IMG/VR virus record: IMGVR_UViG_3300030004_000009
Location: 1 to 64,000 of that record
Length of the DNA: 64,000 nucleotides
Origin: a virus
Direction: 5' to 3' (one strand)
Part shown: positions 3,410 to 54,089 of the stretch, one piece after another
Layout: each line of letters opens with the position of its first letter
Position numbering within the stretch: position 1 is the stretch's first letter
The notes under the pieces: generated by a model
Seen by the model: the letters and a program-made list of their open reading frames with translations, nothing else
The model's database searches: none
What the model was told of the DNA's origin: nothing
Made by a program: the position numbers and the translations under genes

Positions 3410-3677
3410 TAACGATAGAGCCATTGCAGCGTGAGTTGTAATTGAAAATTGGGTTAAACGGGGAAACTCTAGAAGTAGACAATCCCGTAGGAAGCTTAGA
3501 AAACAATTTAATAGTTCTAAGAACCTCTAACGACTAGTTGGTGAGTATTGTAACAATAATCCAACCACGAACGCCCGACATCTTAAGTTTTAAGATGATG
3601 ATATAGTCTTCTCTATGTATAACTAAAGAAAACATAGGAAATATAGGATAAAGAGCCTATATAAATTTAAAAATCGG
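3410..3677 (+). ncRNA. group I intron 4 in MCP (268 nt, no ORF)
   Basis: P1 is GCUU|UA-ACGA-UAGAGC with a U3409.G pair. Core elements AAACGGGGAA, AATCCCGTAG, CTCTAACGACTA and GATGATATAGTCT. Terminal G3677. Confidence 0.88.
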
Positions 3678-31300: not shown

Positions 31301-34300
31301 CAAGGTAAACAACACATTGAATCTCTTTTAACAAATGAACAAGTATTTTTAGAAGATAGTGAAACTCATGCTCTAACTCAAGATTATATGAGTAAGTTAG
31401 CAGGTGTCAAATATGTTCCTGACTATATTTACGATCATGTTAAAAAAGCAATTAGTTTAACTGCATCTCATGAAGCTAATGGAAAACTTGGTGAACTTGC
31501 TAATGGCCCTGGAATACCTGAAGGTTTAACAGAACCACAACTATTAGAACGTTTTAATAAACTTAATCAGTTTAGAATTACTGTTAATGGAGCACTTAAT
31601 AAAGATTTATCTAACGAATTAATTAAAGAGTATGTTAATAAATTAGTAGGTGATAAAAACTTTAAAGAGTTTACTGAAACACCTGAATTTAAAGATTTAC
31701 AAACTAATAAGTCACCAGAATCTAACTACAGTACTCTTAAAGTACTTAAAGACTTAGCATTTCATGCACAGAATATTGATCCTACTAAACTTAATGAACA
31801 ACGTCAAATAGCTTATCAACTTGATAAGCTTGATGAACCTAAACCTACTGGTGAGTTTGATAATGGGCCAGTTATAAATACCTTTGAACAGTATGCAGAT
31901 GGTAATATTGACAAGAATAACCCCATTATCTCTGAATTTAGTAGAATTGATGGTTTAATAGATTATATTAACACTTCTATTCAAAAAGGTTTACCTTATG
32001 AGATGTGGGAGCGTTACCTTTCAACTGAAGGCTTACAACGGTTTATTAATATAAATCATTTACAGAAAACTATTGGTCGTGATTTAACAGAAGGTGAGAG
32101 AGATAATCTCTTTACTACCTTTAATACTAATAATATTTATACTCGTCTTCTAACTGAAGGAAAATATAATCTAGGAAATTCAGACCTCAATCTACATACA
32201 ATTAATAGTATAGATGATACAAATCTACGTAGTGCTATTGATACAGTAAGAAATTTTAATCAAACTCGTATACCTTCACCATTACGTGGAGACAATGATC
32301 ATCCTGAATCTTCTAAATCTATATTGCGTGATGTTTATAAAACTTTAAATTCAGAAATAGAAAATCTTGATACTGTTGGTACATCTAATTATCTTAATGC
32401 GGATGATAGCTTTACTGAAATGTTAGATACTCAAATTAACGCTATTAAAAGAATTGGTGCTTTACTTAATGCAGCTAATACATCAAATCCTATTATAAAT
32501 GATTTTCGTGCTAACCATAGAGGTTTATTATCTGATGATCTAAGAGATAAAGTTCTTACAATTCTTGATAATGATGACCTTGGTACATTAGGTAATGAGT
32601 TAAATAGAGTTTATCGTCAAGTTAATTATCTTAAAGATCTTAATGAGTTTAATAAAAATAATACGATTGCTAGACTTTTACGTGAAGATGGTTTTGAATT
32701 ATCAGCTAAAGTACAATCATTAAATGATTTAGCTCAAGATCCTGATATTTTAAAATTAATTCCATCATTAGGCGCTTTACAGGCAGATCAGGATATTAAT
32801 AACTTTGTTAGTTCCTATAAAAGTGCTTCTGATGATTCTAAGTTAACAGCTCTTTCTAAATTCGCTAAAATTGAAGAGAATATCTATCAAGATGTTCAAA
32901 ACCTAACTGATGATGATAAGAAAGTATTAGTAAATAAGAGTTTTAGACCAATAAATTCATCTGCAAAAGATTTCTATGATAATATAAGTGGTGATGAACC
33001 ACTAAATGATAGTCATAGAACTATATATCTTGCTACTATTTTTGGTTCATCAACTATTAACTTTTATGCTAATTATGCAGGTAAATATGATAGTGATGCA
33101 GAGGCTTTTACAAATTTAAATAAAACCCCTTATATACCATTTGCTAAACAAGAAAGTGCGGTACGTGTTGCTAATTTAGTTATTAATGGTGATCCAACTA
33201 TTATTAGAATGTTCTTAAATGCTTATAGTTATGATGGAAGTACTGATATAGTTAGTGATTTTAGTAGTCCAAAGGATGGTAATACTTCTTTTGATAGTAG
33301 TAATCTAGTAGCAATCTTAGGTTCATCTGGTACAGGTAAGACTACAGCAGTTCTATATAGTATTATGAATATGATACCTGATGAAGATAGTAATGTTATG
33401 CTCTTAACACCAAAGAATAGACAATTTAATACATTAAGAGGCACACTTATTAATGGTGGTTATGAAAAACGTTTAGATGATCGTAGTAGCACAGTTAGAG
33501 AATTTATTAACAATCTTAACCTTAAATATAAGGATGGTAGTAAGTATGATGTTACTAAGAATGATGAAATACTTAATGGTGTAGATATAGATAAAAAAGA
33601 AACTGGTAATGCAAAGATTGATTTCTATACTAAGTTTGATACACAAGTATTTGATAAACTTGACCTTTATGATAATAAAAAGTTAAAATCTGAAATAGCA
33701 AATTTATTTTCAAAAACAAGATTGTTTGCAACTGATGAGTTTACACACTTAAATCCTATTGATTTATGTTTAATTACTAACTTAATTAATGATTACAATA
33801 AGACTGATATAGTTTTACAAGACCCTTCTAAACGTAGTTCTATAGTAGTACTTGGTGATGCAAATCAAATGGGTTTTTTAAAGGATGATGGCACTAGACG
33901 TGATTACACTAATGTAGCTACAACTATAATATCACAACCTCTTTTAACTTCATTACGTTCAGGATGGGATTTAATCAATAACACACTTGTTGATTTACAA
34001 CGTAGGACTATGGAGGTTAAAGAAATATCAGGAGTTGACCCAGCTGCTCTTACAACATCTGAAATAATACAAAAATATCGTGACCAACATCTTCAGTTAT
34101 TTAATTATCAAGGTGTTGACGGAAATATTGGTATGAAAAGTATTAAAGTTGATGGTAATCTTAAAGCATCTGATCTTAGCTTTATAACTGATAATAAAAG
34201 CAAAACATTTAAGGATAAAGATGGTAATGATATACCAGTTAAAGGAAAAGATATTGTCTATATTATAAATTCAGATATAGATATACCTAGAGCTCAAGCT

Positions 34301-37300
34301 TTATTACGTGAAGCATTAGGTGCTAATTGGGAAGGTCTTGCTGATATTGAGATTTATAAGCCAGAAGAAGTTCAAGGTGGAGAATATAAGTATACTATTA
34401 TAGACGCTAAGCCTAGACTTACACCAAATGATCCTAAAAGTAACGATTATGATTATAGTTTAGTTCGTGTACATGAATTTTTAAATACAATGTTATCACG
34501 TGCTACAGAAGCTACACTACTTATTGAAGATCCTTCTATAACTAACTATATAGGTTTAGATAATGTAGCTAAAGGAAAAGCTACTAATCAAAAGAAAATA
34601 ACTGATCAAGTTATAGCACAAGTTAAGAAGAATAAACAAATAGTTCTTGCAGCTATTCTTGGTGAAGATTATGTTCCACAAGGAGCTAAACCTGGTTCTA
34701 AAATTGATACAAGTGCTGTTCCACCTCCTAAACCTATAGCTGATCTTTATAGTAATTCTTTTCCTATAGAACTAACTCAAGACCCTCTTAATCCTAAAAG
34801 TCCTGCTGCTAAAATAAATACTGGTATAGATTTAGAGAACAAAATTAATAAAGCGAAAGTTAAGGATATAGTGGCTTATACTACATATTCTACTAAAGCA
34901 GACTTTGACCTTATAAGTAGTATACCAAGTGTTGCCGACGATATAGATACTTTAAAAACAGAAGATATGAAAAAGAGTCATATAGAAAATATAATACAGT
35001 CACTTAAATATTATATAGTTAAAGGCCCTATAATAAGTGAGAATAACGTTGCGCTTAAAGCTAATTTTGAACAGTATTTAAAGCAATATGACTATAATAG
35101 TCCTATATTTTATATAGAAGCTGCTAAAAAGGAAGGTACTAATGTTCAGTATGGTAGAAGTGAAGACTATTGGCAAGATCCTAAGCCAGATCAATTCTTA
35201 TTTTCTTTACGTGTTAAACTACCATCTAAAACTGGTGAACAACCACTTGACATAACTCTAGGTTTACTTAATAGTTTTACAAATCTTGAAAATAAGTTTA
35301 AAGCAGCTCAAAATAATGAATCTAAAGTACCACTTACTAAAGATGACACAGATGTTAACACATTTATAAAACACGTTCGTACTTGGTTAATAAGTGGTGA
35401 TAGAAATAGTAGCAAACAAGGTGTATGGGAAGAGGGGAAGTGGAGATCACGTGATCTATCTGCTAGAGAATGGCGTAGTATATCTGAAACTTGGGATGGC
35501 CGTTATAATGTTAATGATCCCAAAACACCTCCTGTATATCCAACTCTAAAAGATTTAAAAGCTAAATACCCAGATTATCACATAAGTGAACCACAAGTTA
35601 TAGTTTCTTTATTTAAAGACGAGAATGGTAAACTAATAGTTGATGATGCTGGTGATCCTATACAAGACTTTCGTGGTAAGAGTGTAGTATTCATGTCAGA
35701 ATATAAAGAACTTCAAAAGGTTAAGAATGATGATCTTTTAAATATCTATTTAAAACAACTTAAACTTTTTGGTACTAAAGACTTCTTATCACTTGATAAA
35801 GATGGTAAAGAAGCCTATATAAAAAGTAAACCTGATAGAATACAAGTAGATGGACAGTTTACACTTCCATATAAACCAAATATGGTACAAATGATACGTC
35901 TTGATACACCACGTGACTCTTTCTTAGGGTTTAGACAAAAGTTTCTTGCGGCTATTCATGATCAAGAATCAGGTGGTAATGTGTTTGATTTATTTGAGAA
36001 ATTTGACATGAGCCCTTACGTTAAAGATAGATTGGCTAAATCTCTCTTAACTATTAAACAATTTATAGAATCAACACCTGATAATAAACAATGGTTTAAA
36101 GAGGAAGTTTTAGATGAAGTTAATAAGACTTTAGACACAAAAATTGAAGAACTAAGAACTCATGTTTTAAATACTTATGGTGAAACTGGAGATGCTTTTC
36201 AAGATAATGATTCCTTTAAAACTTTAATGCTCGATCCTCTTAAACCTTTTAAAAGAGGTGTAGATGAGTTCTCAGAGTATTTAAATGATCTTCTTGATCT
36301 TAACGATCCTCATACTATATTTAGACGTAAGTTTGATACTGATATTAATAAAATAAATAGTGCTCACGTACCTGATAAGAAGAATAGTAATCCAGTACAA
36401 GCTAGTGATTTACAAATAACCTTAACTCCAGATAAACGTGTAGATTTTAACCAGTCTATACTAGATTTAAATTTATTAAATTTGTTTAATAAGACAAAAA
36501 ACCTTAACTTTGCAGCAGCGATTGATAAAGCTCTAATAGAATTTACAAAATTTCCACAAGGAGAGACAAGATTTGATAACTATCGTTTAGATAAGGTTCT
36601 TAAGGATGGACAGTTAGAAAATCTTGTTATAGCATCACGTGCAGCACTTAAAGGTTATCAAATATCTAATATGTTAGCAGATGTTAAGTCTACAGGACAT
36701 GAGTTTATAGTTCCATTTAGGGGTATTCAACAAGCAGCTTATAATATAGATTTTGCTAAACTCCTATCTCTACATGACTCTGAGAATTTACCTATTACAG
36801 AATCTGAAGTTAGTGCACTACATATTAATACAAATCAAAGGTTACAATTATTTGATGAATTAGGAGATAAATGGTTAACAAGTAAATTTGGTGATTTTAA
36901 CAATGATTTAAGAAAATTAACTAATACTAATGATCAATATAACTTCTTACAAGGCATAAATGATAAAATTGATAGTTTAAATGAAATAGAAAGAGTTGTA
37001 CCATCTAATGAAATATTATCTCCAGGTACAAAAACAACTTATCAAGTATCACCTAATGGCATAGTAGCTATCGATACAGTTGAAAGTGAAGTAAAGAGAG
37101 GTTTAATAGAACAACAAGATGAATTTAGTAAGTTAACTCACGATCAAATTACACTTGAAAATGTAAGTTTTAATAAAAATAAAGCTGTATTTAAAGCTAA
37201 AGTTGGTGATAGTGAATTTAAAGTAACTTATGATGCTAAAACTGGTAATATTGATCCTCAACGTTTAGATACTGAAACATGGCAAGAGAAACTACAAAGA

Positions 37301-38059
37301 TTCTTTCCTGATTTAAAAACTTCAGCAGAAATTAATCAGGCAACTACAGATATTTTAAGTAAAGTAGTTAAAGACACATCTGAACAGGTGAATCCTTCCA
37401 AGTTACTTACAATAGATAGTATGAAAGACGAATTAGGTCATAGGTTATACAATTTATTAACTCCTGAACAAACACAAGTTTTATTACCTGATACTAAAAC
37501 TACTGATAAAGACTATTACTCTAATTTAATGGACTCTTATGTAGATAATTTTGTAAAAGACGGTAAAAATTGGTATACAAAGGTAAGTGATATGGCTAAG
37601 ACAGTTATGGATAATAATCGTGATAGTGCTTTAGGTCTTGATACAGAAGAACCAGATCCTATAGAAGCTGAAGTTAAAGAAGAATCTAAAGTTGATAAAC
37701 TTAATTTGTTAAAGAAAGATGTTAATAGTGCTGATAATAAAGCTATAGAAGAGTTCAAATTAGAAGCTGGAAAACTATTTAACAATATCCCTAAGGAACA
37801 ACAGACAACACTTAGAGATTGGATTAAGAACTATCAATTGCGTCATAGATTAGCTATAGCTAATAAAATAGTAACTGGTCGTGAATTTTCATTAGAGCAG
37901 TTAGATTTAAAGAAAGATTTTACTAAATTTACTGATAAACAGCTATCTGATGAATTTCAAGATAAGATAGAACAAGATCCTGATTTATATGAGCAATATA
38001 GAGTTGCTTTTAATAAATTAACTAAATATAGAGTGGAAAAATCATCAAATAATTGTTAA
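28301..38059 (+). CDS. giant ejection protein with an SF1 (RecD/Dda-like) helicase domain
   Basis: 3252 aa. GSSGTGKTT (about 33320), ATDEFTH, LGDANQ, VQGGEY, TMLSRA (about 34490). N-terminal hydrophobic segments. C-terminal Cys. Confidence 0.8.
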   Translation: MNAMPDNATPVATQTSVPQYTPIPATSQPDSSGFDWIAVQLQTGGGKSPSDLTSMGVDPDNTTLSTPDFYKSTSKIQKLFTGQDGKFDNNAFNSYYQKAVQSYNNYIQSAPSVTNAATNIVSDDSMTRYLGMNIRRQPVQVSLVSKDPFTNLKTAQGSFYGLTEFNKWSDPKLSIQQVATTQNVVDPTTGKQLNYKPEDTGLFNLYGFLSEPLVLAQYDSDIRDDKGKIIHKQGEDKLNAQGLPFYETLSGRDPSGKQVLSRQDTLTKEGSFYSQFDFMKSNQIQKGAVSSIIKAAVQYLPMLIPGVGEAYSAYVIAQGLVDSGASIAKAVDGIINGDSAKQDSLYKWANTLQGYTGQLKGGVSQYGKDTWYSPENLLNQAVDALYILKSQNNLVKWPQEFTKWKMAKELGVATDGMLSVGDAATNALGLGSDVDLSAYVAKYGGNPEGVMKSIQALQQNQNLFVKYSTYAQHFSTAYMAASTAASISNLADQRGIDERDKGFLYLGYTAALIPFFSSGFGRWVNKAMGGSIEEANEAAKPALENARDTINEGWSSLSPDDAAKVADNALQTQAPALDDITTKTSKVLGQSTIKEKAMFNLAVGKQLGDKVVKYLKGLNTNEFKGAIIANAVDMTSQKAISDGLQVVYNGLSSAGLTSSQENKQFDINPISFAKDLISEGFSGAIGGAMFHLAGIATGSHPAPTYSANKVIDYVNAGHIQELYAAHADMLKKGQFGSTKLSMTPMTDENGDVIPGVFKPVSKENPLSQNQAIGEKVLAGIKMLESLKSAYNMQDPDKTAAAKNDFYNGIIDTKTDTDLYLQLNHAMKNVFKLGTDIRSYDKLDKNGDDESLINKKAELSLALKQLKHLQGNDSIDEFFTQGLFNIRMDINEPFGVDNRETIAQREAGRPYKQLNSVQQTKVDDMYKKYVLDPDTGLMPSLQKAYQEYKHFDEKMESKGYYREIQTFRESVEHLKKYVMKMPLPYFNQEPTIGLAKVGTEEQGKQHIESLLTNEQVFLEDSETHALTQDYMSKLAGVKYVPDYIYDHVKKAISLTASHEANGKLGELANGPGIPEGLTEPQLLERFNKLNQFRITVNGALNKDLSNELIKEYVNKLVGDKNFKEFTETPEFKDLQTNKSPESNYSTLKVLKDLAFHAQNIDPTKLNEQRQIAYQLDKLDEPKPTGEFDNGPVINTFEQYADGNIDKNNPIISEFSRIDGLIDYINTSIQKGLPYEMWERYLSTEGLQRFININHLQKTIGRDLTEGERDNLFTTFNTNNIYTRLLTEGKYNLGNSDLNLHTINSIDDTNLRSAIDTVRNFNQTRIPSPLRGDNDHPESSKSILRDVYKTLNSEIENLDTVGTSNYLNADDSFTEMLDTQINAIKRIGALLNAANTSNPIINDFRANHRGLLSDDLRDKVLTILDNDDLGTLGNELNRVYRQVNYLKDLNEFNKNNTIARLLREDGFELSAKVQSLNDLAQDPDILKLIPSLGALQADQDINNFVSSYKSASDDSKLTALSKFAKIEENIYQDVQNLTDDDKKVLVNKSFRPINSSAKDFYDNISGDEPLNDSHRTIYLATIFGSSTINFYANYAGKYDSDAEAFTNLNKTPYIPFAKQESAVRVANLVINGDPTIIRMFLNAYSYDGSTDIVSDFSSPKDGNTSFDSSNLVAILGSSGTGKTTAVLYSIMNMIPDEDSNVMLLTPKNRQFNTLRGTLINGGYEKRLDDRSSTVREFINNLNLKYKDGSKYDVTKNDEILNGVDIDKKETGNAKIDFYTKFDTQVFDKLDLYDNKKLKSEIANLFSKTRLFATDEFTHLNPIDLCLITNLINDYNKTDIVLQDPSKRSSIVVLGDANQMGFLKDDGTRRDYTNVATTIISQPLLTSLRSGWDLINNTLVDLQRRTMEVKEISGVDPAALTTSEIIQKYRDQHLQLFNYQGVDGNIGMKSIKVDGNLKASDLSFITDNKSKTFKDKDGNDIPVKGKDIVYIINSDIDIPRAQALLREALGANWEGLADIEIYKPEEVQGGEYKYTIIDAKPRLTPNDPKSNDYDYSLVRVHEFLNTMLSRATEATLLIEDPSITNYIGLDNVAKGKATNQKKITDQVIAQVKKNKQIVLAAILGEDYVPQGAKPGSKIDTSAVPPPKPIADLYSNSFPIELTQDPLNPKSPAAKINTGIDLENKINKAKVKDIVAYTTYSTKADFDLISSIPSVADDIDTLKTEDMKKSHIENIIQSLKYYIVKGPIISENNVALKANFEQYLKQYDYNSPIFYIEAAKKEGTNVQYGRSEDYWQDPKPDQFLFSLRVKLPSKTGEQPLDITLGLLNSFTNLENKFKAAQNNESKVPLTKDDTDVNTFIKHVRTWLISGDRNSSKQGVWEEGKWRSRDLSAREWRSISETWDGRYNVNDPKTPPVYPTLKDLKAKYPDYHISEPQVIVSLFKDENGKLIVDDAGDPIQDFRGKSVVFMSEYKELQKVKNDDLLNIYLKQLKLFGTKDFLSLDKDGKEAYIKSKPDRIQVDGQFTLPYKPNMVQMIRLDTPRDSFLGFRQKFLAAIHDQESGGNVFDLFEKFDMSPYVKDRLAKSLLTIKQFIESTPDNKQWFKEEVLDEVNKTLDTKIEELRTHVLNTYGETGDAFQDNDSFKTLMLDPLKPFKRGVDEFSEYLNDLLDLNDPHTIFRRKFDTDINKINSAHVPDKKNSNPVQASDLQITLTPDKRVDFNQSILDLNLLNLFNKTKNLNFAAAIDKALIEFTKFPQGETRFDNYRLDKVLKDGQLENLVIASRAALKGYQISNMLADVKSTGHEFIVPFRGIQQAAYNIDFAKLLSLHDSENLPITESEVSALHINTNQRLQLFDELGDKWLTSKFGDFNNDLRKLTNTNDQYNFLQGINDKIDSLNEIERVVPSNEILSPGTKTTYQVSPNGIVAIDTVESEVKRGLIEQQDEFSKLTHDQITLENVSFNKNKAVFKAKVGDSEFKVTYDAKTGNIDPQRLDTETWQEKLQRFFPDLKTSAEINQATTDILSKVVKDTSEQVNPSKLLTIDSMKDELGHRLYNLLTPEQTQVLLPDTKTTDKDYYSNLMDSYVDNFVKDGKNWYTKVSDMAKTVMDNNRDSALGLDTEEPDPIEAEVKEESKVDKLNLLKKDVNSADNKAIEEFKLEAGKLFNNIPKEQQTTLRDWIKNYQLRHRLAIANKIVTGREFSLEQLDLKKDFTKFTDKQLSDEFQDKIEQDPDLYEQYRVAFNKLTKYRVEKSSNNC

Positions 38060-41000
38060 ATGGCTAGATGTCTAACTAATTTAAACGAAGAAACAAACCA
38101 AGGAGTACTTAATGATTTACTACGTGGTAGTGACTTTGCGAGTAATTTAAGAAATTATTATAGAGGTAATCTAGATCAATTACCGACTATAGACTCTTTA
38201 GTTAAAGAACTTAATGAAGATATATTACCTGCAATTATAGAAGGTAAACTTAACAAAGATTATGATTATAGTGACATAAAAGAAACTATAAATAATGAGT
38301 TAAACAGTGAAGCGATAAATCTAGCAATTGCACAATTAAAAGGTAATATGCGTAAATTTAACCTTACTGTTAGACCTATACTTCCTAAATTTGATATAGT
38401 AAGTTTACTTTTAGCAGATATAGATAAAAAAGAACAAGGTGATGTTGCTTCTACTACTCAAAAAGTAGTAGAAGCTTCTAAACTTAATGATGCAACTCCT
38501 TTAGATATAGCTACTGACACAAGTCTTAGTGAATATATACATGAGAATAATTATCAAAACTTAAAAGCTTATCGTTTAGATAGGTTTAAGGGTTCTTCAA
38601 GTATGGAGAAGATAACAGTTTCTAAGTTTATTACTAAAGGATTAATTGAAACAGCCTTTATAGATGTTAATAATAGAGTATTAGTAAATCAACTACAAGG
38701 TCCAGCTAAAGAAGGATATACAAATGATGTAGATACAAATATAAAAAACTATCGTATTAGTTTATTTAAAGACCTTATAGGTAGACTTGGTATTGAGGAA
38801 ACTGTTAAAGGTGAAACAGTCCCTCTTATTTATCGTGATGATCTTCTTAAGAAAGCTAACTTTGATAAAACTCTTAAAGATATAGCTAATAGAGCCACTA
38901 TTATAAAATATAATGGAGAACAACGATCACTCACTGAACCTAACCTACTATCTGAAATAACAGAGAAATTTAAAGATACATTAGATTCAAATCTTAAAGA
39001 AATTATTGATAACTTTAGTGATTATGTAATACTTAGTGATTTTAATAAACTCTTTAATTATTATGGAGAAGGTACTATTTCAGTTAATAAATTTAATCCT
39101 GACTTTGATCCTATCTTACGTAAGTATGAAACTAAAGACGCATTATCTGTTGATGCGTTTAATGTCTCGTGGGATGAAAAGATTCAGAATGGAGTAGAGC
39201 TATCTTCACCTTTTTATAAAACTGTAATTAATAACACAGCTATCTTAAATTATAACACAGGTGATGAAACTGGTAAATATCTTTACCCTACACTTGTAAC
39301 TTCTATCATGGCTCCTTATTTCAATCAAATTGATAGAAATGATGTAACTAATTCACTTAGACAGTTAATAATGGATAGGATTGGAGCACAAGGTATAGGT
39401 TATACTGAAAAAAATACATTATATACATTATATAAAAAGTTTTTTGAACGTGAAGGAGATGTACTTAATACTCCAGCTAAGAATGATAATACCACTGTCG
39501 CTTCATTTTACGAGACTATAAAAGACAATAGAGATCAAACTCTAATGCAACTTATAACTAAACCTATAAGTGAAATGTCTCCAAATAGAATAGCTGAAGC
39601 AGTTGAAGCTCCTAATGGTGATATAAGATTAAAAACAGCTGAGGCAAATAATAAAAGCAGTGTAGGTTTTACTAGTACTCGTTTCATTAATGATCATATT
39701 AATATGAGCAATGAAGATTTACAAAACTTCTTAAAGAAGTGGAATATATCTTTTATAAATGAAAAGGGTAAACCATCTACAGTTAACTACACAGGACAAA
39801 ATGGTATAGATTACGTATTAAAGAATACTAATAATCAAATAGTAGATATTGATACTATTCAACAACTATCTCAAGACTTATTTGGTTTTGATTATAAGAA
39901 TGACAAACGTCATGCTGAATTTTGGCAGGAAGTTCAATCTCTTAGTAGAAATGATGAACCTGTAGCATCTCCTTTTCTAACTTATATTAAAGATGCTTTA
40001 GATATAGTACAAGCTAAATCTAAATTAAATGATCCTGAATTTCAAACCTTTCTTCGTACTGAACAAGAAAAACAACGTAAAAAAGGTGGTGACATAGAGA
40101 CAAACTATAAACCAATTAATGATGCTATAAAAAAGGAAGGTGCTAAGTTCCCATTTAGTGATCCTTCAAACTATAAATTTGAACTTAATAATATCAATGC
40201 TACAGATATAGGTAAATTAATAGTTACAGCAGAAAATAATGCAACAGGTAACCAACGTAAATCAGTTGTTTCTACAGTTGATGGTACTTCATCTGCTGCA
40301 TTTACTAATTATACATATGCTGCTGCATTACAACAAAATTTTACTGCTCATAGAAGAACATTAAACTCTGCAATACGACCTGACATTGATAAATCACCAT
40401 TACATAATAATATTATTCTTAATGATGCTAACTTCTTAAAAGGTTTTCCTCTTAGAGGAGCAACTAAAGTAGGTGCTACTGTAAAGCCAGTAGGAAGTCA
40501 AACTCCACTTGAAACTTTACATTATGATATAAACTTAGGTTATTTAAGCATGTTACAACAAGGTATAGATGGTGGTCATATTCGTCCAACTTTTAATTTA
40601 TTCGTACCTGCTGATAAGAGTAATCAACCACTAGCTGAATTTGGCAATGAAGTTTTAATACCTTCACAAGGTAGAGTTAAACTTTTTGTTGATGATAATA
40701 ATCGTGCTCCATCATATGAACAGTCAATGGACTTATTATATAAGACTAATGGACAGTATTATAGAGCACAAGGACAAAGTATCCTTGATACTTGGGAACA
40801 AGTTTATCGTGTTTCAGGTCATGGTTCTGTATTTGAAAGTAATATAAAATCAAAAGGTAGTATTAGTAAACAACTTATCGCTCTTAATGACTTTCATAAA
40901 GATGGTTTTTGGAAAACAGGAACCTTTGAACATGGGCTTAAAGATCTAAATGCAGCTAGATTTTATGCTAATAAAGCAGGAGTTGTACTCACCAACTGGG

Positions 41001-44000
41001 TTCATTATATAAATGACACAAAGAGTTTTGGCCCTAAAACTAGACTTGAAATTAAAGGTGAATTAATAGATAACATCTCTCACTATGAAGGTAATCCTAA
41101 TAAAACATCTGAAAGTTTTAAAGTAAAATATAATAAACAGTTAGTTAACTTTGCGAATGACTTACGTGAGATTGGATTTACTTTTGATCCATTAGCTAGA
41201 GAAACAATTACTAGACTTTATCATAAATTAGGTGGTGAGTTTGGTAATAAAGCTAATATGTTTATTACTAGCAGTAACATAGAAGCCAAGAAGTTTAGTG
41301 ATATTCACCCAGCTATTATAAAGTATTTTTGGGATCATAACCTTCTCGAACAGAATTTAATGCACGCAAGTGTAGGAGATTCATCATTCTATAAAGGTAA
41401 TAATGAAAATACATCATGGTTAACTAATATTAAACGTAATGTTTGTTTTACAGCTACTATACGTCCTTTTTCATTAGGTCTTGAAACTGGAGTTGAAGAC
41501 CATACTCGTACAGCATTTGTTGATGATATGACTTCCATGTTTAAAGGTATACTTGGTGATAGTTCTCAAGTAGTTGATTGGGATGGTGCTTCACTTAAGA
41601 CCATGACTCAATGTCTTAAGACATGGAATTCTCTTAATGGTAAATTTAATGGTAATGGTGGTACAACTCATAAACCATTCATATCTCATTATGATCCTAC
41701 AACAGCACATTTTGGTATAACTAAATTTGCTGACTTTACCATGACTAATGACTTAATACGTCAAACTATAGGTTCAAATGTAGACTTAATGGAACTTCAT
41801 AAACAACTTTATGCTACTGATATATCAAATGTCGATATAACTAAATCTTGGAAAGATGGTGTTAATTTAAGTACACACAATGATGTTTATTATTACAAAC
41901 GTGGTATAGACTTTGAGACAGGTTTATATGGCACACTTCATAAGTTAGATTCTATTACATTCTTAGCTAAAGATATTGATGGTAAGTCTAAGTATATAGT
42001 TACGACACGTAATATGTCAATTGCACCTGATAAACCAGTATCTAAGCCAATGCAAATTAATACAATGTTTGACTTATGGCACATCTTAGGTGGTATTGAT
42101 TCAGTAGAACATACAGATTTAGAAACTCAATTTCATTATAGAGATGGTGATACTAAACTTTATCTTACTGGAAATTATAAATCAGCTGAAAAGTTACTTG
42201 AATATGAAAGTTATATCGGTAATAAAGGTGAAACTATAATACCAGAAAGTTATGTCAGTGGTAATGATAATGTAAAACGTGGCTATCAAGCTTATAAACA
42301 ACTGTTTAATGATAACGGATTAGTTAGTTCACATATTAATCTTATTGATAAATATACTAAACAACCTATTAACGAGAGTCAATTAGCTTTAGAAATAGGA
42401 CAACACGATATAAAGACTAAAGACCCTAAAGAGTTTATAACCATATTAAATCAATATAAAGATAATCTTCAAGACTTAGTAGAGTATGCTAATAAAGGAG
42501 AAAGTCAACTTTCACGACCTTATCAGAGGTTTAAAGGTAAGAACATCGATCGCATTACATTTGCAGGAGCTCAAAAGGTTGGACAGTTTAATATGAATAA
42601 TATTGAAACAGTTCACTTGAAAAAGCGTTCTGACTTCTTACAGGGTAAAGAAGATCCAGGAATACCAGGAGTTACTCGTTTAATAACTCATCAAGTTTCT
42701 AACTTTAATGCAGGTATACAGCTATCAGCTTTTCACGAAACTGATAATACAGTTGTAACTACACCAACTCAAATGCTTAATGGTCTTATATTTAACGCTA
42801 AGAGTCTTGGGAAAGTACAGCAAATGTATAGAGCTATTGGAAATATAGTTGATCAAGAGCTTACTTATATACTAAACCAAGAACAACATAATATTCCTGA
42901 ACTTGTAAGAGCTCTTAATACTCAACCTCCAGATGGTAGTAAAGACTCTAATGGTAACAAGTTAACACCTGGTAAGTGGTATGAACAGAATAGAGATAAA
43001 CTACTTGATATTTTTCATAATATAATGCAGAATAAAGTAGCAAAGGATGATAAAGATGAGTTTACTCTTGAAGGTTTGATTGTTAATATGTTTAATAGTA
43101 AAGACATGCCTTTTGACGATCCTCAAATCTTTCATTCAGCTATTGCAGAATTAACTAACTATCTTACTAAAACAGGTATTCGTACTAAGTTTGATGGTTT
43201 ATTTGCAGTTCTACATCCAGCTTCCGAATTTATGCAAGTTAGAGAAGTACAAGGTGGTTATATGCCAGTTAAGACTGATGAAGGTGGTTACACTACTATT
43301 AAGTTAGAACCAGGAGAGACAAGAGTTCTTCAACCTGCTGAATTTGCTGATTATAAAGCTCTTAATGAGCATTTGATAGAACATCATAATATAGATCCTA
43401 CTAACACACCAGAGTTTAAAGAATGGTTTAATGGTTCTAAAGTAGTTGATAAGGAAGGCAAACCTTTACTTGTATATCATGGATCACCTAATAAATTTGA
43501 TAAGTTTAATGACCTCCCTACATGGTTTACTTCTTCAAGAGAATCTGCACAAGCTTATTCTGCTGGAGAACATCCTGATTTAACTAAGAGTCAATACATA
43601 CAACTAATACATGAGTATGAAGAGAAATTAAAAACTAATCTATCTCCTCAAGAGAAACAAAGTACTGAAAAGGCATTAAAAGAGCTTACAGATCTACGAG
43701 ATAGTGGTGATGTACATGAAGCTTATCTTAATATACAAGATCCTACTAAAATAACTGCAGGTTATACTCCAGGTGAAACACATTATGTAGTAGATCACCC
43801 TAATCAAATTAAATCTCTTAATGACGATAGAAATGCTCTAGATAATGCAGAAAAAATAAGGAAACATGCTCAAACACATCAATACACTGAACCTCGTAAT
43901 CTTAAAGGACAACAAGTAACATTAAATTATGCTGATGGTACTAAACAAGCTCTTAGTTATGACGATGATAGTGAACAACAGTTAATACCTGAAGCTAGAG

Positions 44001-45724
44001 CATTAGACCTTATAAGAAGTAAGGTTGATGAATATAAAAAGCAACTTGATGATAGTTCTTACATTCAATTAAGTGATAAGGATAAAATTGCTGAACTTCA
44101 AACTAAACATAAACAGTTTTCTAATGATCTTGAGGAATTACGTACTATAAGGGAGAGTGATAATGAGTTATCTGGTTGGTCTCAACGTAGTGATAATAAT
44201 TATGAAGTATCTTCTAAAGGTGATGCAAGATTTAGTGCTTTAACTGCTAAGTTTAAACCTAAAACAATAATAGATGGTAAAGATGTAGGTGGTAGAACTA
44301 TAGAAAGTGTATATCAAACTGATATTAAAAGATCAGGTAAAGGTAGACCTCCTTCTAAAGATTCTATAGTTTATAATCCTTCATTAAAAACTTCACAGGA
44401 ACAGGAAGATTATTCATATTCTAAAGGTTATAAACCTTTATGGGATGAATGGGCTAAACAAAACCCTACTCTAATCAAAGAGTTACGTGATAAATCTAAA
44501 GGTAAAACTTTAACTGATCAGTTTGCTAATACAAGAGTTTCTCAAGCTAGAGCACTTAGTGACATATTAAACGAATCTAATAAACTAAAGCATCCTGAGA
44601 TTGCACATGTACTTGATAATTATGTTAAAGAGTTACAAGGGATATTAAAAACAAGTATTAAACGTGATGATAAAGAGCAAAGTATAGATGATATAAAACC
44701 TCAACAATCACCAGTAGGAGATCCTTATAAATTCTCTTATGAAAACTTTAGTCAAAGTAAGAAGTATCGTGATGGTAAAATAAAGCGATTAGAACGTGAT
44801 AAAACAGCAGAAGGAGTTAAACAGTTATTAATAGCTAAAGAACACGAATATCTTGATAAACTGAATAATGTAGGTTTACTTTATACTGGTAGATTACAGA
44901 AATTCTTAGATGAAGCTAGTAATGGTTATATTGGACCTAATGGTCAAGTATCTTATATACCACAATCTCTTCAGAATCCTGATCTATTTGAAAATGCTCA
45001 TAAGACACAAAATGCTAAAGTAGAAGTATCAAGGGCTGAATGTATTGCTCCAATAGTAGCAAGACAAAACTTCTTACTTCAAGAAGGTGATACTGTAGGT
45101 TCAATAACTAAAGACTTAATTAAGAAACGACTACTTAAAACACTTGATTATTTTAAAACTGATGCTGATGGCGTTATAATATCACAAAGTGGTAGAAAGA
45201 TATTCTTACATACTGGCTCAGAAGGTCCTAATAGTATTAGTATAGAAGAACATCCAAATGTAGGTGTTTATTTCACTAATGGTAAAAGCACTAAGTGGTT
45301 TACTAACGATTCAGGTGATAGATTGTTTCAAGTACCTACAGGAATGACTGTAAGTAATACTAATAATGAACTTCATATCTTCTTAAATAATAAATATCAA
45401 ATACAAGATAATCCTTTAATTCAAAATTTAAATAATGGTTTAGGTCGTCAATTACTTAGTACAGATAGTGGTAATATTAAAGATACTTATAATATTTTAA
45501 TCTTTGATAAGGATAGACAAGCTGCATATAATAAAGCAGTAATTGGTTTAGAAGATAGAGCACAGAAAATGTTTACTTCGTGGCAAGTTTATCTTGATAA
45601 ATTGATAGGCACACGTGTTCCAGGACAGCACTTTCAATCCTTTCAAGGTATGAAGATTGTAGGTTTTGCAGAAGGAAATCATATGCATGTACCAAACTCA
45701 GTTATAAAACTGAGTGGAGCGGAT
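38060..45724 (+). CDS. virion DNA-dependent RNA polymerase (crAss-type two-barrel), exon 1 of 2 (spliced 3596 aa)
   Basis: WDG...HKP...TKFA beta-like motifs, then R.P.Q and LSGAD, which after splicing becomes SGADFDIDK (the DxDxD catalytic motif). Confidence 0.9.
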
Positions 45725-46042
45725 TAACTAAGAAGTCAAAGTCCGCTTAAAACCTTGTGATATGCTGGAAACCCATGAAGGTGTAGAAACTACAAAGTAA
45801 CTAGTAATAGTAAGCTTGAATGTTTGAAAATTCTACATTATATGGCAATCAGCAGGCAGATTATCCTGAAAGACGGATTTTCGCCTCAGAGACTATCGAA
45901 ACAGCGTTAAGGCTAACGTAATGGAGTAGAGTAGGTGTCAAGTGACATCGAAGTGCAAGGCATTCGTAAGAATGATGATATAGTCCGGCCTCATATGAAA
46001 GTATGAGAGTTGTAATGGAAACGATTACAACGCAACAATTCG
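45725..46042 (+). ncRNA. group I intron 5, inside the RNAP catalytic motif (318 nt, no ORF)
   Basis: P1 is GCGGAU/GUCCGC. GUCAAA pairs with the 3' exon UUUGAC (P10). Core elements ATATGCTGGAAA, AATCAGCAGG, CTCAGAGACTA and GATGATATAGTCC. Terminal G46042. Confidence 0.93.
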
Positions 46043-49000
46043 TTTGACATCGACAAACAGAACGTTATATATCACTCAATTGATAATAATGGCATTCTAA
46101 CAGGTTGGCATCCAGCATTTGATTATAGTAGTAAAGAATCTTTACTAGAGAGCTTAAAATTACCAATTCCTTCTAAAAGGACTATAAGTGACTTTACGGC
46201 TGAAACTACTCCAACTGGTGATATTGTAGATCCATCTAAGTTAATTAAGTTTGGTGGAGATGAGTCTGGATCACATTTAGATCTTAATAATCCTTACGTA
46301 TTAAACGGTATATACTCCCTACTTGATAAAGATTATAGATTAGATGGAGAGAAACATCAAGCAATAGTACAGAAGTTATTAGAATATGAACAAGCTCCAA
46401 CAGCTTTAAATGGTGTTAAGAATTTTGCAGTATCAACTACGAATCAAGTTATTGAGAATCCTTCTAACTTCTTATATTTAGCTAATGGTGTTAGTACTGA
46501 TACTATAAAACAATTTTCAAGTAGAACTAATAAAGCAGAAATTGCTAATAACGATCGTAAAGAAAATCCAGCTGCAATTGCAAGAGCAAGGTATAATAAT
46601 ATGGTTGGTAAGACTGGTATTAGTGTAATGGCTTCTCAAATGAAGAACTTATCTGCTATTCAATACTCAACTAATAGTGCTCTTCGAGAAGTGAGTAATT
46701 TATTTGATAAACAGAAAGCTTATGAAGGTAAGTTAGAGAACTATAACTATCATCTTAACGCTATTCATAGTGTTGATGATCTTTACATAGGTCCGCATAA
46801 GAAAGAGCAATTAGAAACTGCTATTCAAATATTACGACAAAGGATTGAAGATATAAAACATGAGATTAATGTTAAAATAAATAATATAGGTGGTCCTTAT
46901 ATAACTTTACCTAATGTAAATTATCATATCTTTAGTGAAAAGTTTGAGAATGAAGATAGTCCTATTGTTACTTTACATTATAATTACGATACAGATAAGT
47001 TTGAGGCAGATAAGAGACTTAGTCATGCTAAGATAGCATCATCTTTTGATGTTGACTCTGCTGATTTTTATTCTCAACTTTTATCTTCTGCAACAGATAA
47101 TGCTAAAGAACTTGATTTAGGTAAATTAAACGCTACACCAGCAGTTATGACTATTTATCCTTCAAGAGCTCTTTTAAGTAAGTCATTTGAAGAGTCAGTT
47201 GATAATATGGTATCACCACTTACTGATATGTTAATTCGTAATGCAAGTAGTAACATCTATGATAAAAATACAACTGAAAATAGGATAAGTGATCTTCTTA
47301 ATAAAGTTGAACAAGCAATGTATGATGGTAAATCAGAAGCTTTATTAAGATTAAAACCTATTGCTATAAACGCTCTTGAAACTAATTATAAATTACGTTT
47401 AAATAGAGGTTTTATTACAGATTTAAATACAGGTAACATCTATGATATTGAGGAAATTAATAGATTTAAAGAATTATTCTTTAAACCTGCACAAACTGCT
47501 ACACTACTTGCTGGTTATCTAAGTATCAATCAAGGTATAAAAACTAATAGTTGGGACTTATATAACTTCGCTAATCGTTTACAAGATAAAATTAATGGTA
47601 TGTATATTACTAATAAGTATCAACCTACCTTTAACTTTAAGGACTTTTTAGACAGTTTAGCTAATAATGGTTCATATCATCAAAATCATATTAATCAGAC
47701 GTCACCTTTATTTAGAGCTTTAGGTCTTAACTTTAATCCTTTAAATATTTTAGCAACTAATGAACATTACGCTAAACAATTAAGTGCATTTAACTCTGCT
47801 AATACTATATTACGTGAATCTTCGTATAGAATTGATAGTATGTATCATTTTGTTGATAAGTTACGTGATATGGGTTATATAGGGCCTACAAGTAATATTA
47901 AAGAACAGGATTTTAATGAAGTTGAGAAATTTGTTGAAGCTAATATTATACATACTTTTCTCAAATCAGAAGATAATAACTCAAGTAATAATGATGAAAA
48001 ACCTATCTTCTATATAAAAGGTCGTGATGTTACTTTAACTACTAAAGAAGGTCGTAAAGAGTTTATAAACTGGATGCAAACTGACTTCTTACGTAATATA
48101 CAGGAGAATTCAATACTTAAGGGTAATCCTTTTACACAAGACTTACGACTTGATAATAAACAAGATTCTTTATTATTTAATAAAGTTGATTTTATGAAAC
48201 TTCAAATGGATACTACAAATGTGAAAACAAATGTAGAACAAGGTCCTTTTCGTGATGCTTATGTATCAGGTCTTAAAGAAGTATATGATAATAAATATAC
48301 AGATTTAAATGGTAATAATATCTTTAACGCTCTCTTTTGGTATAATCTAATACTTAATAAGAATAATATAACTAAAAATAGTTATGCGAAGTTACTAGGT
48401 GATGTTATGTGGGCTGATAATAAAGATCCAAATGTCTATTCTCGTTTATTTGAACTTAAAGGTAAAATAGGAAAGTCTAGTGATGTAGAACTTAATTTAG
48501 GTACTCCACAAAAGTTTTTCGTTAATGAAGCTGATACAGTAGGTACAGAAAGTGAAAACTTTTATAAATTAAGTATTGCAGGTATCCCATTCGATTTACG
48601 GAATCTTGCTTATTATTTTGAAGTTGGAACTACTCATAGATTACCTTTAGCAAGACGTGATGATTTTGATGACTTTTATAATGAACAACCTGAAGACTAT
48701 AGTAATGAAGAAACAGGTAATGTAGATGGTGGTGTTAATTTAGATAATCATTCATATGATTATAACGATAATAATGGTGACGACAATAACGATGATAATA
48801 CTGAAGAAGCTGCTAAGATACCACGTAACTATATGTATATTGATAGGTGGAAACAACTAGAAGTTCCTGGTACAAGAGTTGTAATTAGAGTTAATGGACA
48901 ATCTCAAGAGGAAAATATAAATGAATCTACGACTACTATGCCATTAAAAGATGGAAATTTTGAATTATCTAATAGTCTTAATTATAATCCATTTGTTAAA

Positions 49001-49168
49001 AAATCAGTTGAATTAAGACCTGATCAAAATGAAGCATTTAACTATTGGAAACTCGCTACTGATAATATACACAATTTCTTGTCACGACTTAGTGATACTA
49101 CAGATATACAAATAACACATAATGGTGTCACTGAAAAGTTTGATAAAGACAAAAATTATGACTGCTAA
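46043..49168 (+). CDS. virion RNA polymerase, exon 2 of 2
   Basis: The frame is open from FDIDKQNVIY (46043) through ORF 46601-49168. Contains GKTGI and SQLLSSATDNAKEL motifs. Ends in Cys. Confidence 0.9.
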   Translation, partial: FDIDKQNVIYHSIDNNGILTGWHPAFDYSSKESLLESLKLPIPSKRTISDFTAETTPTGDIVDPSKLIKFGGDESGSHLDLNNPYVLNGIYSLLDKDYRLDGEKHQAIVQKLLEYEQAPTALNGVKNFAVSTTNQVIENPSNFLYLANGVSTDTIKQFSSRTNKAEIANNDRKENPAAIARARYNNMVGKTGISVMASQMKNLSAIQYSTNSALREVSNLFDKQKAYEGKLENYNYHLNAIHSVDDLYIGPHKKEQLETAIQILRQRIEDIKHEINVKINNIGGPYITLPNVNYHIFSEKFENEDSPIVTLHYNYDTDKFEADKRLSHAKIASSFDVDSADFYSQLLSSATDNAKELDLGKLNATPAVMTIYPSRALLSKSFEESVDNMVSPLTDMLIRNASSNIYDKNTTENRISDLLNKVEQAMYDGKSEALLRLKPIAINALETNYKLRLNRGFITDLNTGNIYDIEEINRFKELFFKPAQTATLLAGYLSINQGIKTNSWDLYNFANRLQDKINGMYITNKYQPTFNFKDFLDSLANNGSYHQNHINQTSPLFRALGLNFNPLNILATNEHYAKQLSAFNSANTILRESSYRIDSMYHFVDKLRDMGYIGPTSNIKEQDFNEVEKFVEANIIHTFLKSEDNNSSNNDEKPIFYIKGRDVTLTTKEGRKEFINWMQTDFLRNIQENSILKGNPFTQDLRLDNKQDSLLFNKVDFMKLQMDTTNVKTNVEQGPFRDAYVSGLKEVYDNKYTDLNGNNIFNALFWYNLILNKNNITKNSYAKLLGDVMWADNKDPNVYSRLFELKGKIGKSSDVELNLGTPQKFFVNEADTVGTESENFYKLSIAGIPFDLRNLAYYFEVGTTHRLPLARRDDFDDFYNEQPEDYSNEETGNVDGGVNLDNHSYDYNDNNGDDNNDDNTEEAAKIPRNYMYIDRWKQLEVPGTRVVIRVNGQSQEENINESTTTMPLKDGNFELSNSLNYNPFVKKSVELRPDQNEAFNYWKLATDNIHNFLSRLSDTTDIQITHNGVTEKFDKDKNYDC

Positions 49169-49209: not shown

Positions 49210-52200
49210 ATGAAAAGTAACTGTATAATTACTATTAAAATTGGTGATAAAGAAATACAATTAGATCCAGGAGCTAATATTAGTCAAGAAGATTTCAATG
49301 TACTTGCTAAAACAATGCCAGCTGATAAGTTAAGAGAGTTATATAGTGATCTTAAGAGTAATATTACTCTTGATGATATTTTAAAAAGTAATGATGCTAA
49401 TCTTATTAATGCTGGTAAAGAGTATTATCAAAGTTTAATTAATGACACAAAAGATAAGTTTTTAACTATTCTTAAAGCTATTCAACTTGAGAAAGATCCC
49501 GAAAGATTAAAAGAACTAATAACTTATGCTTCCTCTTTAGATCCTAAAGAGAAACTTACACATGGTAATTTTATGATTGATCCACAAGATAGTTATAAAA
49601 GTTCTCCATATAGTCCTGATCAAATAAAAAACCTAGTATTTAGTAAAGTTGGTGATAAAGTACAATTATTTAATGATTTATTAAAACTTCCAGGAATGGA
49701 GTCAGTTAAAATGTCTATAGCTTATGCATCTGAATGGAATAATGATCCTAAATTTACTAAAGTTGGTGGTGCTTATATAAGTCCTGATAACATAGTACAA
49801 ATTGTATTACCTCCTATACCTACACATATAATTAAAGGAGTTCCTAGTAAAGTTTTAACTATTAACCAAGAAAATATAACAAAGACTGCTAAAGCACAAG
49901 TACAAGATGTACTTATTCATGAGTTATTACATGCTGTATATTCAGAACTTTACCGTTCTAATTCTATTTTTAAAAAACAGATTGATAATATTTATGATAA
50001 GGCAATACAAGAGAAACCAGAATTAACTAAGAAATATGGTGAGAAAAAGAATGATGAAGGTAAACATGAGTTTATAGCATCTATATTTAACGATGGTACT
50101 TTACAAAACTTATTAACAGATATTCCAAGTGAAGATGGTAATGTGTCTCTATTTGATTCTTTTACTAATCTACTAAACAAAGATAAAAATGGTGTAGTTC
50201 CAGGCATTACGAAGCCAACACTATTACGTGATTTCATAAATATTATTAGTGCTAAGATACCTATAATAGGCTCTAAAGAACTATTAGATACTGTAGCTGC
50301 TAATGAAGCTATACAAGACGATCGTAATATCTTCTATATAGGTGGTTCAACCCCAATCGATGACGAAGAAAATATGTCACCTAATGATCAAACTGATACT
50401 AAGTATGGTAATAATAGAAAAGCTTTCTATGCAAATCAACGATTTAATGAGAAATGGGGCGATAACTCTTTTAAACGAGATAGTTACTTTAAAGGAACAG
50501 AAAGTGATCCTAAACCAGCTCGTCTAGATATTTTACGTCCTGATGATGTTATTATTATTCCTTGGGTTAATTATGTTAAAGCCACTCAAGTAAATGGAGT
50601 TAAAATACCAGGTTACTATCAAGAAGTAGGTGGTGTTATGAAAGAAATAGTTGGGAAAGATGGTAAACCAAAATTAGTACCTGTAATGAAAGGTGATAAA
50701 CTTGCCCCACCAGTTCCAATTATACGTGATGAAAATGGTAAAATACAAAAGACAAAAGAGGGTTATATTGTAGAAGAGCGAACACAAGCCTTTCCTGTTA
50801 TATATCCTAATATTAATAGTCAACATATTACTGTAGCTAAAACTACTCTAAAAATAAATGATGAATTTAGACCTATACCTATTAAAGGTAAATCAGATTC
50901 TAGTAGTGGATATAACACAATTTCATTTCCATACTCACTTATTAAAGGGGTACGAGAGTTAGATCGCTCATATTTTGATCATAATACTGATTATACAAAA
51001 CAACTTAATGATACTAAAGCTGAACTTACAAAAGTAGAAAAGTTAATAGCTAAATTAGATCCAAAGAATACTATTAATAATGAGAAGTTATTTGATGACC
51101 AACAATTCTTAACAAATAGAGTTAAGAAATTACCTGAATTAGTTCAGAAAGCTGCCGATATAAAAGCTCAAATTAAAGACTTATACAAGACTTATATTTT
51201 TGAACATAATGAAGGTGGTAAAACTTATATGAATGTCGCAAAACATGAATATATAGGTTATAGACCAAATGTAGATGTAACTAATCATGAATTTAGAGAT
51301 TCACCTGCTTTTAAATTATGGAAACATCCAACTCTAAAAACAATAGATGGTAAACCTCAATGGTATGTAGCTCCTAATACAAATATTTTTGATGTTTTTT
51401 GGGACGGTGATGTAGCAAAAGACTATGCTAGACACTCTGAACAGTTATCAAATGCTATATCGGCAGGTGACCTTGTAAGAAGTAAGGGTGATGCAGAATT
51501 TCCTATTGCAGGTACAGATATAATGCAAAAAGTTAAACTTAATCGATGGTACACTGTAGTTAAACGAGTTGCTAATGGAATACAAGTAGCAACTCAAGAA
51601 GGTCAAGGTATGATTATTCCATTTAATATGGTTAATGCATATGCTAAAAATAAACGTACTAACGATTATCAATCTATGTTAAGTGACTATAAACAACAAG
51701 TTATAGACTTTAACGATGATGCATTCATTAATATTAACGGTAAGACTACATACTCATCTGAAATAAAAGGTAAAAAGCTTATTAATCCACCAATTCAAAG
51801 GACTAATAGTGATGGACAACCTATAGAAACAGAAGAAGAATCAAGTGTACGTTTTGATAATAACCTAGACCTTATAAAAAGTAGAATACAGCCAGGAGAA
51901 TCTTTTGTACGTATTTCTAAACGTTATACTAATGACTCAGGTAAAACAGTTACTTATCCACTTAATGGTTTAGTTCTTGCTAAAACTGATGATGCTCTCA
52001 TAGTGTTTACAGCAGAAGACTTAAGATCTAGTACACACGATCCAGTTACTATAATACAAACAATAAAATATGATTCTAGATTAACACCTGAAAGTGGTTT
52101 AGAAATCACGCATGTAATGGAGAATACTGCTCATGCCAGACGTGCATATGAAGAGTTTGCAGCTGAACGGGGTAAATATGAAACTAATAAGCAAACTGCT

Positions 52201-54087: not shown

Positions 54088-54089
54088 TT

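Follow-up and report, generated by a model that had tools for sequence, protein, structure and literature searches.

DarT toxins ADP-ribosylate single-stranded DNA, with the result that phage transcription and replication are reduced. Phage proteins acting in the opposite direction have been described: AdfN (T4 gp30.3) removes guanine-ADP-ribose from phage DNA, and AdfM, the macrodomain protein of chimalliviruses (PhiPA3 gp108), is an ADP-ribose eraser guarding phage DNA against DarT2. The known phage erasers, AdfN and AdfM, are free proteins produced after infection begins. It is established that phage NADARs counter DarTG1 (PMC11257639), and ADP-ribosyltransferase (ART) domains of the ART-PolyVal clade, which is defined by a His in strand 1, a Tyr in strand 2 and an Asp in strand 5 (Iyer et al., PMC5512222), have a known precedent of fusion to N4-like virion RNA polymerases (PMC5512222); both observations belong to what is already known. 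Here, we analyzed a stretch of 64,000 nucleotides (the window), which is the first 64 kb of a viral contig of peat origin (IMGVR_UViG_3300030004_000009; 176,703 bp), and in which a gene predicted to encode a giant RNA polymerase carries two inserts in one variable region, a degenerate ART-PolyVal domain (insert 1) and a short domain modelled with the NADAR fold (insert 2, or mini-NADAR).

The carrier of the two inserts also has described relatives. The presence of DFDxD in a giant virion protein is a hallmark of crAss-like virion polymerases, and polymerases of this type are packaged in the virion, injected with the DNA, and transcribe the early genes (bioRxiv 10.1101/2020.03.07.982082; PMC7886860). 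As judged by its alignment with homologues, the gene under study is that of a crAss-type two-barrel (DFDxD) RNA polymerase of 3,596 amino acids (aa), whose two exons are joined by group I splicing. Similarly to phi14:2 gp66, it specifies a giant single-chain polymerase with a GxDFDxD motif and belongs to a block of giant genes that is co-directional with upstream virion genes, but gp66 has about 2,180 aa, whereas the polymerase described here is larger, has its motif split by an intron, contains ADP-ribose-related modules, and shows no sequence match to gp66. The ART-PolyVal fusion of Roseovarius Plymouth podovirus 1 resembles the present case in its carrier, a virion RNA polymerase, although this carrier is a T7-like single-subunit enzyme there and a two-barrel crAss-type enzyme here. 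Finally, T4 Alt, a capsid-packaged and injected ADP-ribosyltransferase reprogramming host transcription, offers a functional model for insert 1, although it is a protein of its own and falls in the R-S-E clade, which is unrelated.

Insert 2 and the mini-NADAR family

Insert 2 was assigned to phrog_9995, a family of unknown function (PHROGs, E 6e-27). An exhaustive phmmer search with this insert retrieved 538 representative clusters (50% identity), 96 of them below 1e-30, and neither Pfam nor NCBIfam nor PADLOC has a name for this large family. The AlphaFold 2 (AF2) model of insert 2, calculated from 28 family members, reached a pLDDT of 95.6 and a pTM of 0.90. Comparison of this model with the PDB by Foldseek gave one credible match, 8BAT, a DarT1-linked NADAR from Geobacter lovleyi (probability 0.97, E 0.038), which was also the only one of the 257 Foldseek candidates with Z > 2. 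More specifically, a VIA structure comparison with 48,161 representative chains, which is independent of Foldseek, placed the three NADAR representatives at ranks 1 to 3, namely 8BAT (Z 8.1, root-mean-square deviation 3.7, 121 residues aligned), 8BAU (Z 7.2), and YbiA 2B3W (Z 6.4), with rank 4 at Z 4.2. The same three structures were those by which T4 gp30.3 was recognized as a NADAR in the AdfN paper (PMC11257639). In the viral library BFVD, three uncharacterized family members came first, followed by matches that include several NADAR-annotated proteins of giant viruses and of a Bacillus phage. BFVD also returned weak matches to DUF4326 (TM 0.27-0.30), a candidate that was ruled out as the Pfam DUF4326 model does not match. 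A search of the ESM Atlas gave no usable match, and searches of both inserts in PADLOC and NCBIfam returned nothing credible.

In the NADAR of E. coli C7, residues E88, K95, and D171 are needed, with the Glu and the Lys conserved throughout the superfamily (Schuller et al., PMC11543638), while the third residue, located in the last strand, varies with the subfamily and is a Glu in the YbiA type, an Asp in NADARs linked to DarT1, and a His in those of phages (PMC11125620). Four residues of insert 2, E2082, Q2086, K2090, and D2153, are invariant across the 28 family members. Of these, E2082, Q2086, and K2090 are carried by the first long helix (model residues 48-57), a candidate counterpart of the helix with the catalytic Glu and the phosphate-binding Lys in NADARs such as the DarT1-associated one (DarG1), and the Gln stands at +4 as in YbiA and AdfN. 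D2153 (D120 in the model) directly follows the last beta-strand (117-119), so that mini-NADAR and the DarT1-linked enzymes both have an acidic residue, an Asp, at this strand. In a weak hhalign alignment, which pairs QNPxL...GKxLTD with QHxxL...aKLVEH, this Asp comes 1 residue after the YbiA Glu and falls on the position of the phage-NADAR His. Based on the model, the invariant E2082, K2090, and D2153 are candidate equivalents of the NADAR catalytic residues, occupying the matching structural elements. DarG1 is the best structural match of insert 2, and AdfN shares with it the property of being phage-borne; mini-NADAR differs from both in having no detectable sequence homology to them, and, whereas AdfN is a free early protein, it is embedded in a presumably injected polymerase. 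AdfM would resemble mini-NADAR in function and differs from it in having a macro fold, in being specific for thymine-ADP-ribose, and in having been tested experimentally.

The family is recurrent in giant phage proteins and, above all, in polymerases. The motif G[SA]DFD[VI]DK was found in 38 of the 90 representative domain-bearing proteins of at least 1,500 aa, against 0.55 expected from shuffles, and in 20 IMG/VR loci, mostly on contigs of ~95-100 kb; the related loci were detected with an alignment query, a single-sequence query having found no relatives. The position of the domain in DFDxD polymerases is N-terminal in many cases (including L004-L013), right before the motif in some, C-terminal in others (L021, L024, L031), and after the motif in P0065 (residues 2300-2465), and such different positions in homologous polymerases imply repeated insertion or shuffling. 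In many copies, the two halves of the domain are separated by a loop, which measures roughly 30-350 residues. It is also present in giants that are not polymerases, for example the SF1-helicase protein P0022, where a circularly permuted YpsA-type SLOG domain (cpYpsA; residues 905-944, just under the Pfam cut-off) directly follows it; the same arrangement was seen in two members of the alignment (best E 4.4e-5).

Free-standing copies of 120-200 aa were found in 83 phage records, mostly of phiKZ-like jumbo phages (Pseudomonas, Achromobacter, Delftia). These copies adjoin virion structural genes and are annotated as hypothetical; one of them is PhiPA3 gp084 (L001 2992-3360), so that jumbo phages encoding AdfM also have a free-standing mini-NADAR. 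ART-PolyVal was found in only ~10 of 150 relatives, always N-terminal of mini-NADAR and in four cases within a DFDxD polymerase, and a search of the 79 IMG/VR loci with the ART hidden Markov model (HMM) detected no ART. This distribution suggests that the module has been repeatedly grafted onto injected giant proteins, of which the polymerase is the main one.

Insert 1 and a natural allele lacking it

The two inserts lie between conserved blocks that are separated by 225 aa in the intact homologue P0065 and by 586 aa here. Insert 1 matched the Pfam model PF18760 with 43.5 bits in the whole protein, 48.3 bits as a fragment, and 47.6 bits in a six-frame search of the genome, where it is the only copy (curated cut-off 31.2), and the match spans profile positions 1-136 of 140. 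It shares with the polyvalent ART-PolyVal/Tox-ART-HYD2 domains its Pfam membership, an H-G-S motif, and, at the C-terminal end, PNQIKS. The strand-1 His, invariant in the alignment of the ART family, is kept as H1807 in VYHGS (H-G-S). The position of the strand-2 Tyr is occupied by W1822, so that an aromatic residue is retained, but in none of the 14 relatives compared is it Trp, all having Tyr or Phe. Two similar strand motifs, vfLNIknP and DGiifxnikD, characterize the ART family, whereas insert 1 has only one (AYLNIQDP, A1888-D1894), preceded by a helical hairpin of ~45 residues. Following the full-length HMM path, the lone strand is strand 5 and D1884 takes the displaced position of the Asp, whereas the segment taken alone fits strand 3 best, in which case there is no strand 5. 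Either alignment implies that one core strand is missing, which puts the strand-5 catalytic Asp in doubt. The AF2 model of insert 1 was of low confidence (pLDDT 45.6) and unusable. On the profile match and these motifs, insert 1 is a true but degenerate ART-PolyVal domain, distinguished from other ART-PolyVal domains by the Trp in place of Tyr, the missing core strand, the uncertain Asp of strand 5, and the existence of an allele without it.

This allele was observed in a 228-nt contig from the peat metatranscriptome run X21 (depth 2.4), which matches positions 43325-43389 and 43822-43962 of the window without differences and in which 21 other bases replace 432 nt. The contig reads ...EHHN-IELNNIV-DDRNALD..., with 7 codons in place of the ART module, and the replacement removes the entire ART domain and nothing more. 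The allele is represented by a single contig of low depth, from an RNA library whose contigs may come from DNA; an in-frame swap at the exact borders of a domain is unlikely to be an artefact. No RNA-library contig falls on the NADAR-like insert, which carries no information on its expression. The homologous polymerases P0065, P0084, and P0055 are also without ART. The ART module is polymorphic, being present in one allele and absent from the other, and is a removable, dispensable cassette. Judging from the free-standing copies, the ART-poor relatives, and the ART-less allele, mini-NADAR is a domain that would function independently of ART.

A preliminary description of this stretch had proposed both inserts, the first as an ART-PolyVal domain that looked shortened and the second as NADAR-like. 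All the peptide strings quoted in it are in frame 1 of the open reading frame (ORF) 38060-45727 (+), at the places it gave. The score of PF18760, above the curated cut-off, bears out the identity of insert 1, and the loss of one of the two core strand motifs explains its shortened appearance. Its expectation that alignment with related polymerases would reveal the inserts as variable agrees with the length difference from P0065 and with the ART-less allele. For insert 2, the likeness to NADAR holds at the level of the fold, with the three top structural ranks, the Foldseek match to 8BAT, and the invariant Glu, Lys, and Asp, and fails at the level of the NADAR sequence models. Of the catalytic residues, the candidate Glu, Lys, and Asp are invariant in insert 2, while in insert 1 the Tyr is a Trp and the strand-5 Asp is in doubt.

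The polymerase gene, its intron, and the genome

The ORF by itself is not an RNA polymerase, and only the removal of an intron yields the polymerase of 3,596 aa. This intron matches the group I model of Rfam, RF00028, with 66 bits (gathering score 50, E 2.6e-16), and interrupts the catalytic motif as GAD/FDID. In its P1 helix, the end of the exon, AGCGGAU (45718-45724), pairs with GUCCGCU (45741-45747), forming a U.G pair at the 5' splice site; the terminal base of the intron is G46042, and its removal restores the reading frame. With a slash marking the junction, the spliced sequence ...VIKLSGAD/FDIDKQNVIYHS aligns with the unbroken ...AGSDFDVDKLNIIYRS of P0065 (3,561 aa) and ...QGSDFDIDS of P0084. 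Exon 2 is homologous to residues 2131-3129 of P0065, and three blocks of exon 1 (aa 1119-1600, 1656-1733, and 2319-2553) are common to the DFDxD-bearing giants P0065, P0084, and P0055. One RNA-library contig starts precisely at 46043, the predicted first base of exon 2, which is a weak hint of splicing. Sequence and profile searches of the PDB with the whole polymerase (P0001), its C-terminal part, exon 2, and a profile of three polymerases gave no relevant match, and none to phi14:2 gp66; the missing match to the solved phi14:2 polymerase fits the extreme divergence reported for the family. A tblastn search of 50,697 phage records with the polymerase core, the C-terminal part, and exon 2 found no match. 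The positions of the features are collected in Table 1.

Table 1. Features of the polymerase gene and of its two inserts, numbered along the window
Feature	Position	Strand	Description	Basis
Polymerase exon 1	38060..45724	+	2,555 aa; ends ...KLSGAD	ORF list and translation (ORF 38060-45727)
Group I intron	45725..46042	+	318 nt; no ORF; first codon is an in-frame UAA; last base G	
Polymerase exon 2	46043..49168	+	1,041 aa; begins FDIDKQ; frame open from 46016	
Variable region	43259..45013	+	aa 1734-2318; holds both inserts	phmmer of P0001 against homologues
ART cassette	43390..43821	+	432 nt; aa 1778-1920; swapped in frame for 21 nt	Peat metatranscriptome contig
Insert 1, degenerate ART-PolyVal (Tox-ART-HYD2 clade)	43448..43828	+	aa 1797-1923; motif starts: FKEWFNGSKVV 43415, HGS 43478, WFTSS 43523, AYLNIQDP 43721, PNQIKS 43799	Pfam PF18760
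Insert 2, mini-NADAR-like domain	44159..44590	+	aa 2034-2177; motif starts: YEVSSKGD 44201, RFSAL 44228, RTIESVYQ 44294, LWDEWA 44438, LTDQFA 44510, QARAL 44543	phrog_9995 core 44183-44578
Helix with invariant E2082, Q2086, K2090	44303..44329	+	E-x3-Q-x3-K; candidate equivalents of NADAR E88/K95 (E. coli C7)	
Invariant D2153	44516..44518	+	Candidate equivalent of the NADAR last-strand acid	Model and hhalign

The two ends of the contig, 1-254 and 176450-176703, overlap by 254 nt, of which 253 are identical (one mismatch), suggesting that the genome is probably complete; it is probably circularly permuted or terminally redundant, though the record is classed as linear. The layout is crAss-like, with consecutive co-directional giant genes of 1,099 to 3,252 aa, and the source virus is a 177-kb crAss-related peat phage. 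The giant proteins adjoining the polymerase (3,252, 1,625, and 1,486 aa; 28301-38059, 49210-54087, and 54081-58541) are almost without recognizable Pfam domains, the sole match being a sub-threshold AAA_19 helicase in the protein of 3,252 aa. Elsewhere in the genome, outside the window, a NAMPT-like gene is found at 116510-117232 (-) (PF04095, 124.8 bits), a sign that the phage brings along an NAD salvage enzyme and that NAD metabolism is contested between phage and host. Four further group I introns (59.6-77.8 bits) lie near the start of the window, at 314-580, 898-1170, 2565-2807, and 3400-3630, and the ORF 1140-2240 matches homing-endonuclease families (phrog_314, E 1e-25).

Possible functions of the mini-NADAR

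We propose that the variable region of the polymerase has gained two accessory modules of the kinds used in the polyvalent proteins that phages inject. Insert 1 would be an Alt-type enzyme, modifying the host as in T4 but weakened, or else a relic in decay. Mini-NADAR, a predicted ADP-ribosyl N-glycohydrolase, would be an eraser tethered to the injected polymerase, the first enzyme that melts and reads the incoming phage DNA, and ADP-ribose would in this way be stripped from the template bases before any phage gene expression. The most likely substrate would be guanine-ADP-ribose placed on single-stranded DNA by DarT1-type defence toxins, which we favour because of the Asp configuration and of the best match to a DarT1-linked NADAR. 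That the eraser enters together with the injected polymerase and frees the template DNA of ADP-ribose, in an anti-DarT1-like manner, has in our estimation about an even chance of being correct. The gene structure, the domain homologies, the fold, the conserved residues, the recurrence of the module in many such polymerases, and the ART polymorphism are observed, and packaging, catalysis, and substrate are inferred.

Several observations weigh against this proposal. The NADAR model of Pfam, PF08719, gave no match at E<=1 to insert 2, to the whole genome, or to the 28 family members; hhalign comparison of the insert-2 family (as an alignment of 28 or 148 sequences) with a YbiA/AdfN profile was not significant (E 0.13-0.15), this profile being shallow and made of YbiA-like sequences and one phage NADAR (T4 AdfN); and a PDB search with the profile of the insert-2 family found nothing. 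The Z of 8.1 is by itself within the range that unrelated models can reach, according to the note of the tool. Mini-NADAR has ~125 aa, against 150-220 in NADARs (20-30 residues shorter), lacks the Gly-rich loop that follows the last strand of NADARs, and has a Glu-to-Lys spacing of 8 (E-x7-K) instead of the 7 (E-x6-K) of known NADARs. Moreover, virion packaging and injection of the present polymerase are deduced by analogy with its relatives, and insert 1, given its altered residues and missing strand, may be inactive. Because of the deviations in the active site and of the missing significant match of sequence or profile to NADAR, we describe insert 2 as a domain of NADAR fold whose active site, as predicted by the model, is plausibly that of a NADAR, and not as a demonstrated member of the family.

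The alternative that survives best, although we consider it unlikely, is that mini-NADAR would degrade soluble molecules derived from ADP-ribose, such as immune signals, toxic cyclic ADP-ribose isomers, or ADP-ribose-1''-phosphate, and would ride on the polymerase in order to arrive early. Some family members have an adjacent SLOG domain (cpYpsA), an association linked in the literature to soluble ADP-ribose signalling, the module is also found in non-polymerase giants such as the helicase-bearing P0022, and the phage has NAD salvage, all of which would agree with a soluble substrate. On the other hand, all the non-YbiA NADARs that have been assayed, three phage ones included, act on guanine-ADP-ribose DNA (PMC11257639; PMC11125620), mini-NADAR has its last-strand Asp in common with the DarT1-linked subfamily, and the strong enrichment of the module in an enzyme that reads DNA fits a DNA substrate better.

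A second possibility, which we regard as improbable, is that insert 2 is not an ADP-ribose enzyme at all; it would then be a small alpha+beta nucleic-acid-binding domain or structural adaptor whose NADAR likeness is distant or convergent, and insert 1 would be a dead relic. The sequence and profile comparisons yield no significant link of insert 2 to NADAR, Z values of 6-8 can arise by chance according to the note of the tool, the spacing of the Lys is altered and the domain truncated, and an overlapping gene is annotated as 'nucleic acid binding protein' in one record. Nevertheless, the top three structural matches all belong to one family, with a gap before rank 4; the invariant residues (E, Q, K, D, R, N) have the polar or charged character typical of active sites and sit in the catalytic elements of NADAR; and NADAR-annotated viral proteins recur in a second library, BFVD.

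Still less probable is a dedicated writer-eraser pair, in which the target of ART would be DNA, a host protein, or the polymerase itself, and the modification would be reversed or limited in cis by the NADAR-like domain, in a toxin-antitoxin-like manner: although ART-NADAR toxin-antitoxin pairs do exist (DarT1-NADAR and YarT-YbiA; PMC11543638; PMC11125620), and although ART is N-terminal of the domain in nine relatives, including the four DFDxD polymerases P0025, P0040, P0063, and P0077, with only 20 residues between the two domains in P0036, such pairing is not supported, because the eraser mostly occurs without ART (which is absent from ~90% of the relatives, from each of the 79 IMG/VR loci, and from every free-standing copy of the jumbo phages), and further because the two domains are 2,500 residues apart in P0063, the ART described here is without one core strand and may be inactive, a near-identical natural allele lacks it (on a contig that covers the ART region and not the NADAR-like insert), and both domains are common modules of polyvalent proteins, whose co-occurrence may be incidental.

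Returning to an eraser that would act on template DNA, a literature search on NADAR, virion RNA polymerases, and crAss-like phages, of incomplete coverage, found no earlier description of crAss-type polymerases with a NADAR-like module, nor of the divergent phrog_9995-type family as NADAR-related. If the proposal is true, an eraser built into the polymerase would shield the initial round of transcription, for which any newly made protein comes too late. We consider it possible, but rather doubtful, that the wider picture also holds, in which mini-NADAR would be common in crAss-type injected RNA polymerases, ADP-ribose removal would be coupled to transcription, and the free-standing copy of the nucleus-forming, phiKZ-like phages would be the missing anti-DarTG1 counterpart of AdfM.

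The viruses that are most abundant in the human gut belong to the crAss-like phages, and the family recurs in dozens of crAss-type polymerases as well as in jumbo phages that are tractable in the laboratory. Considering the size of the family (538 clusters) and the tractability of these phages, one biochemical assay could annotate many proteins. In conclusion, crAss-type polymerases act as 'polyvalent' carriers, in which effector modules are gained, moved, and lost.

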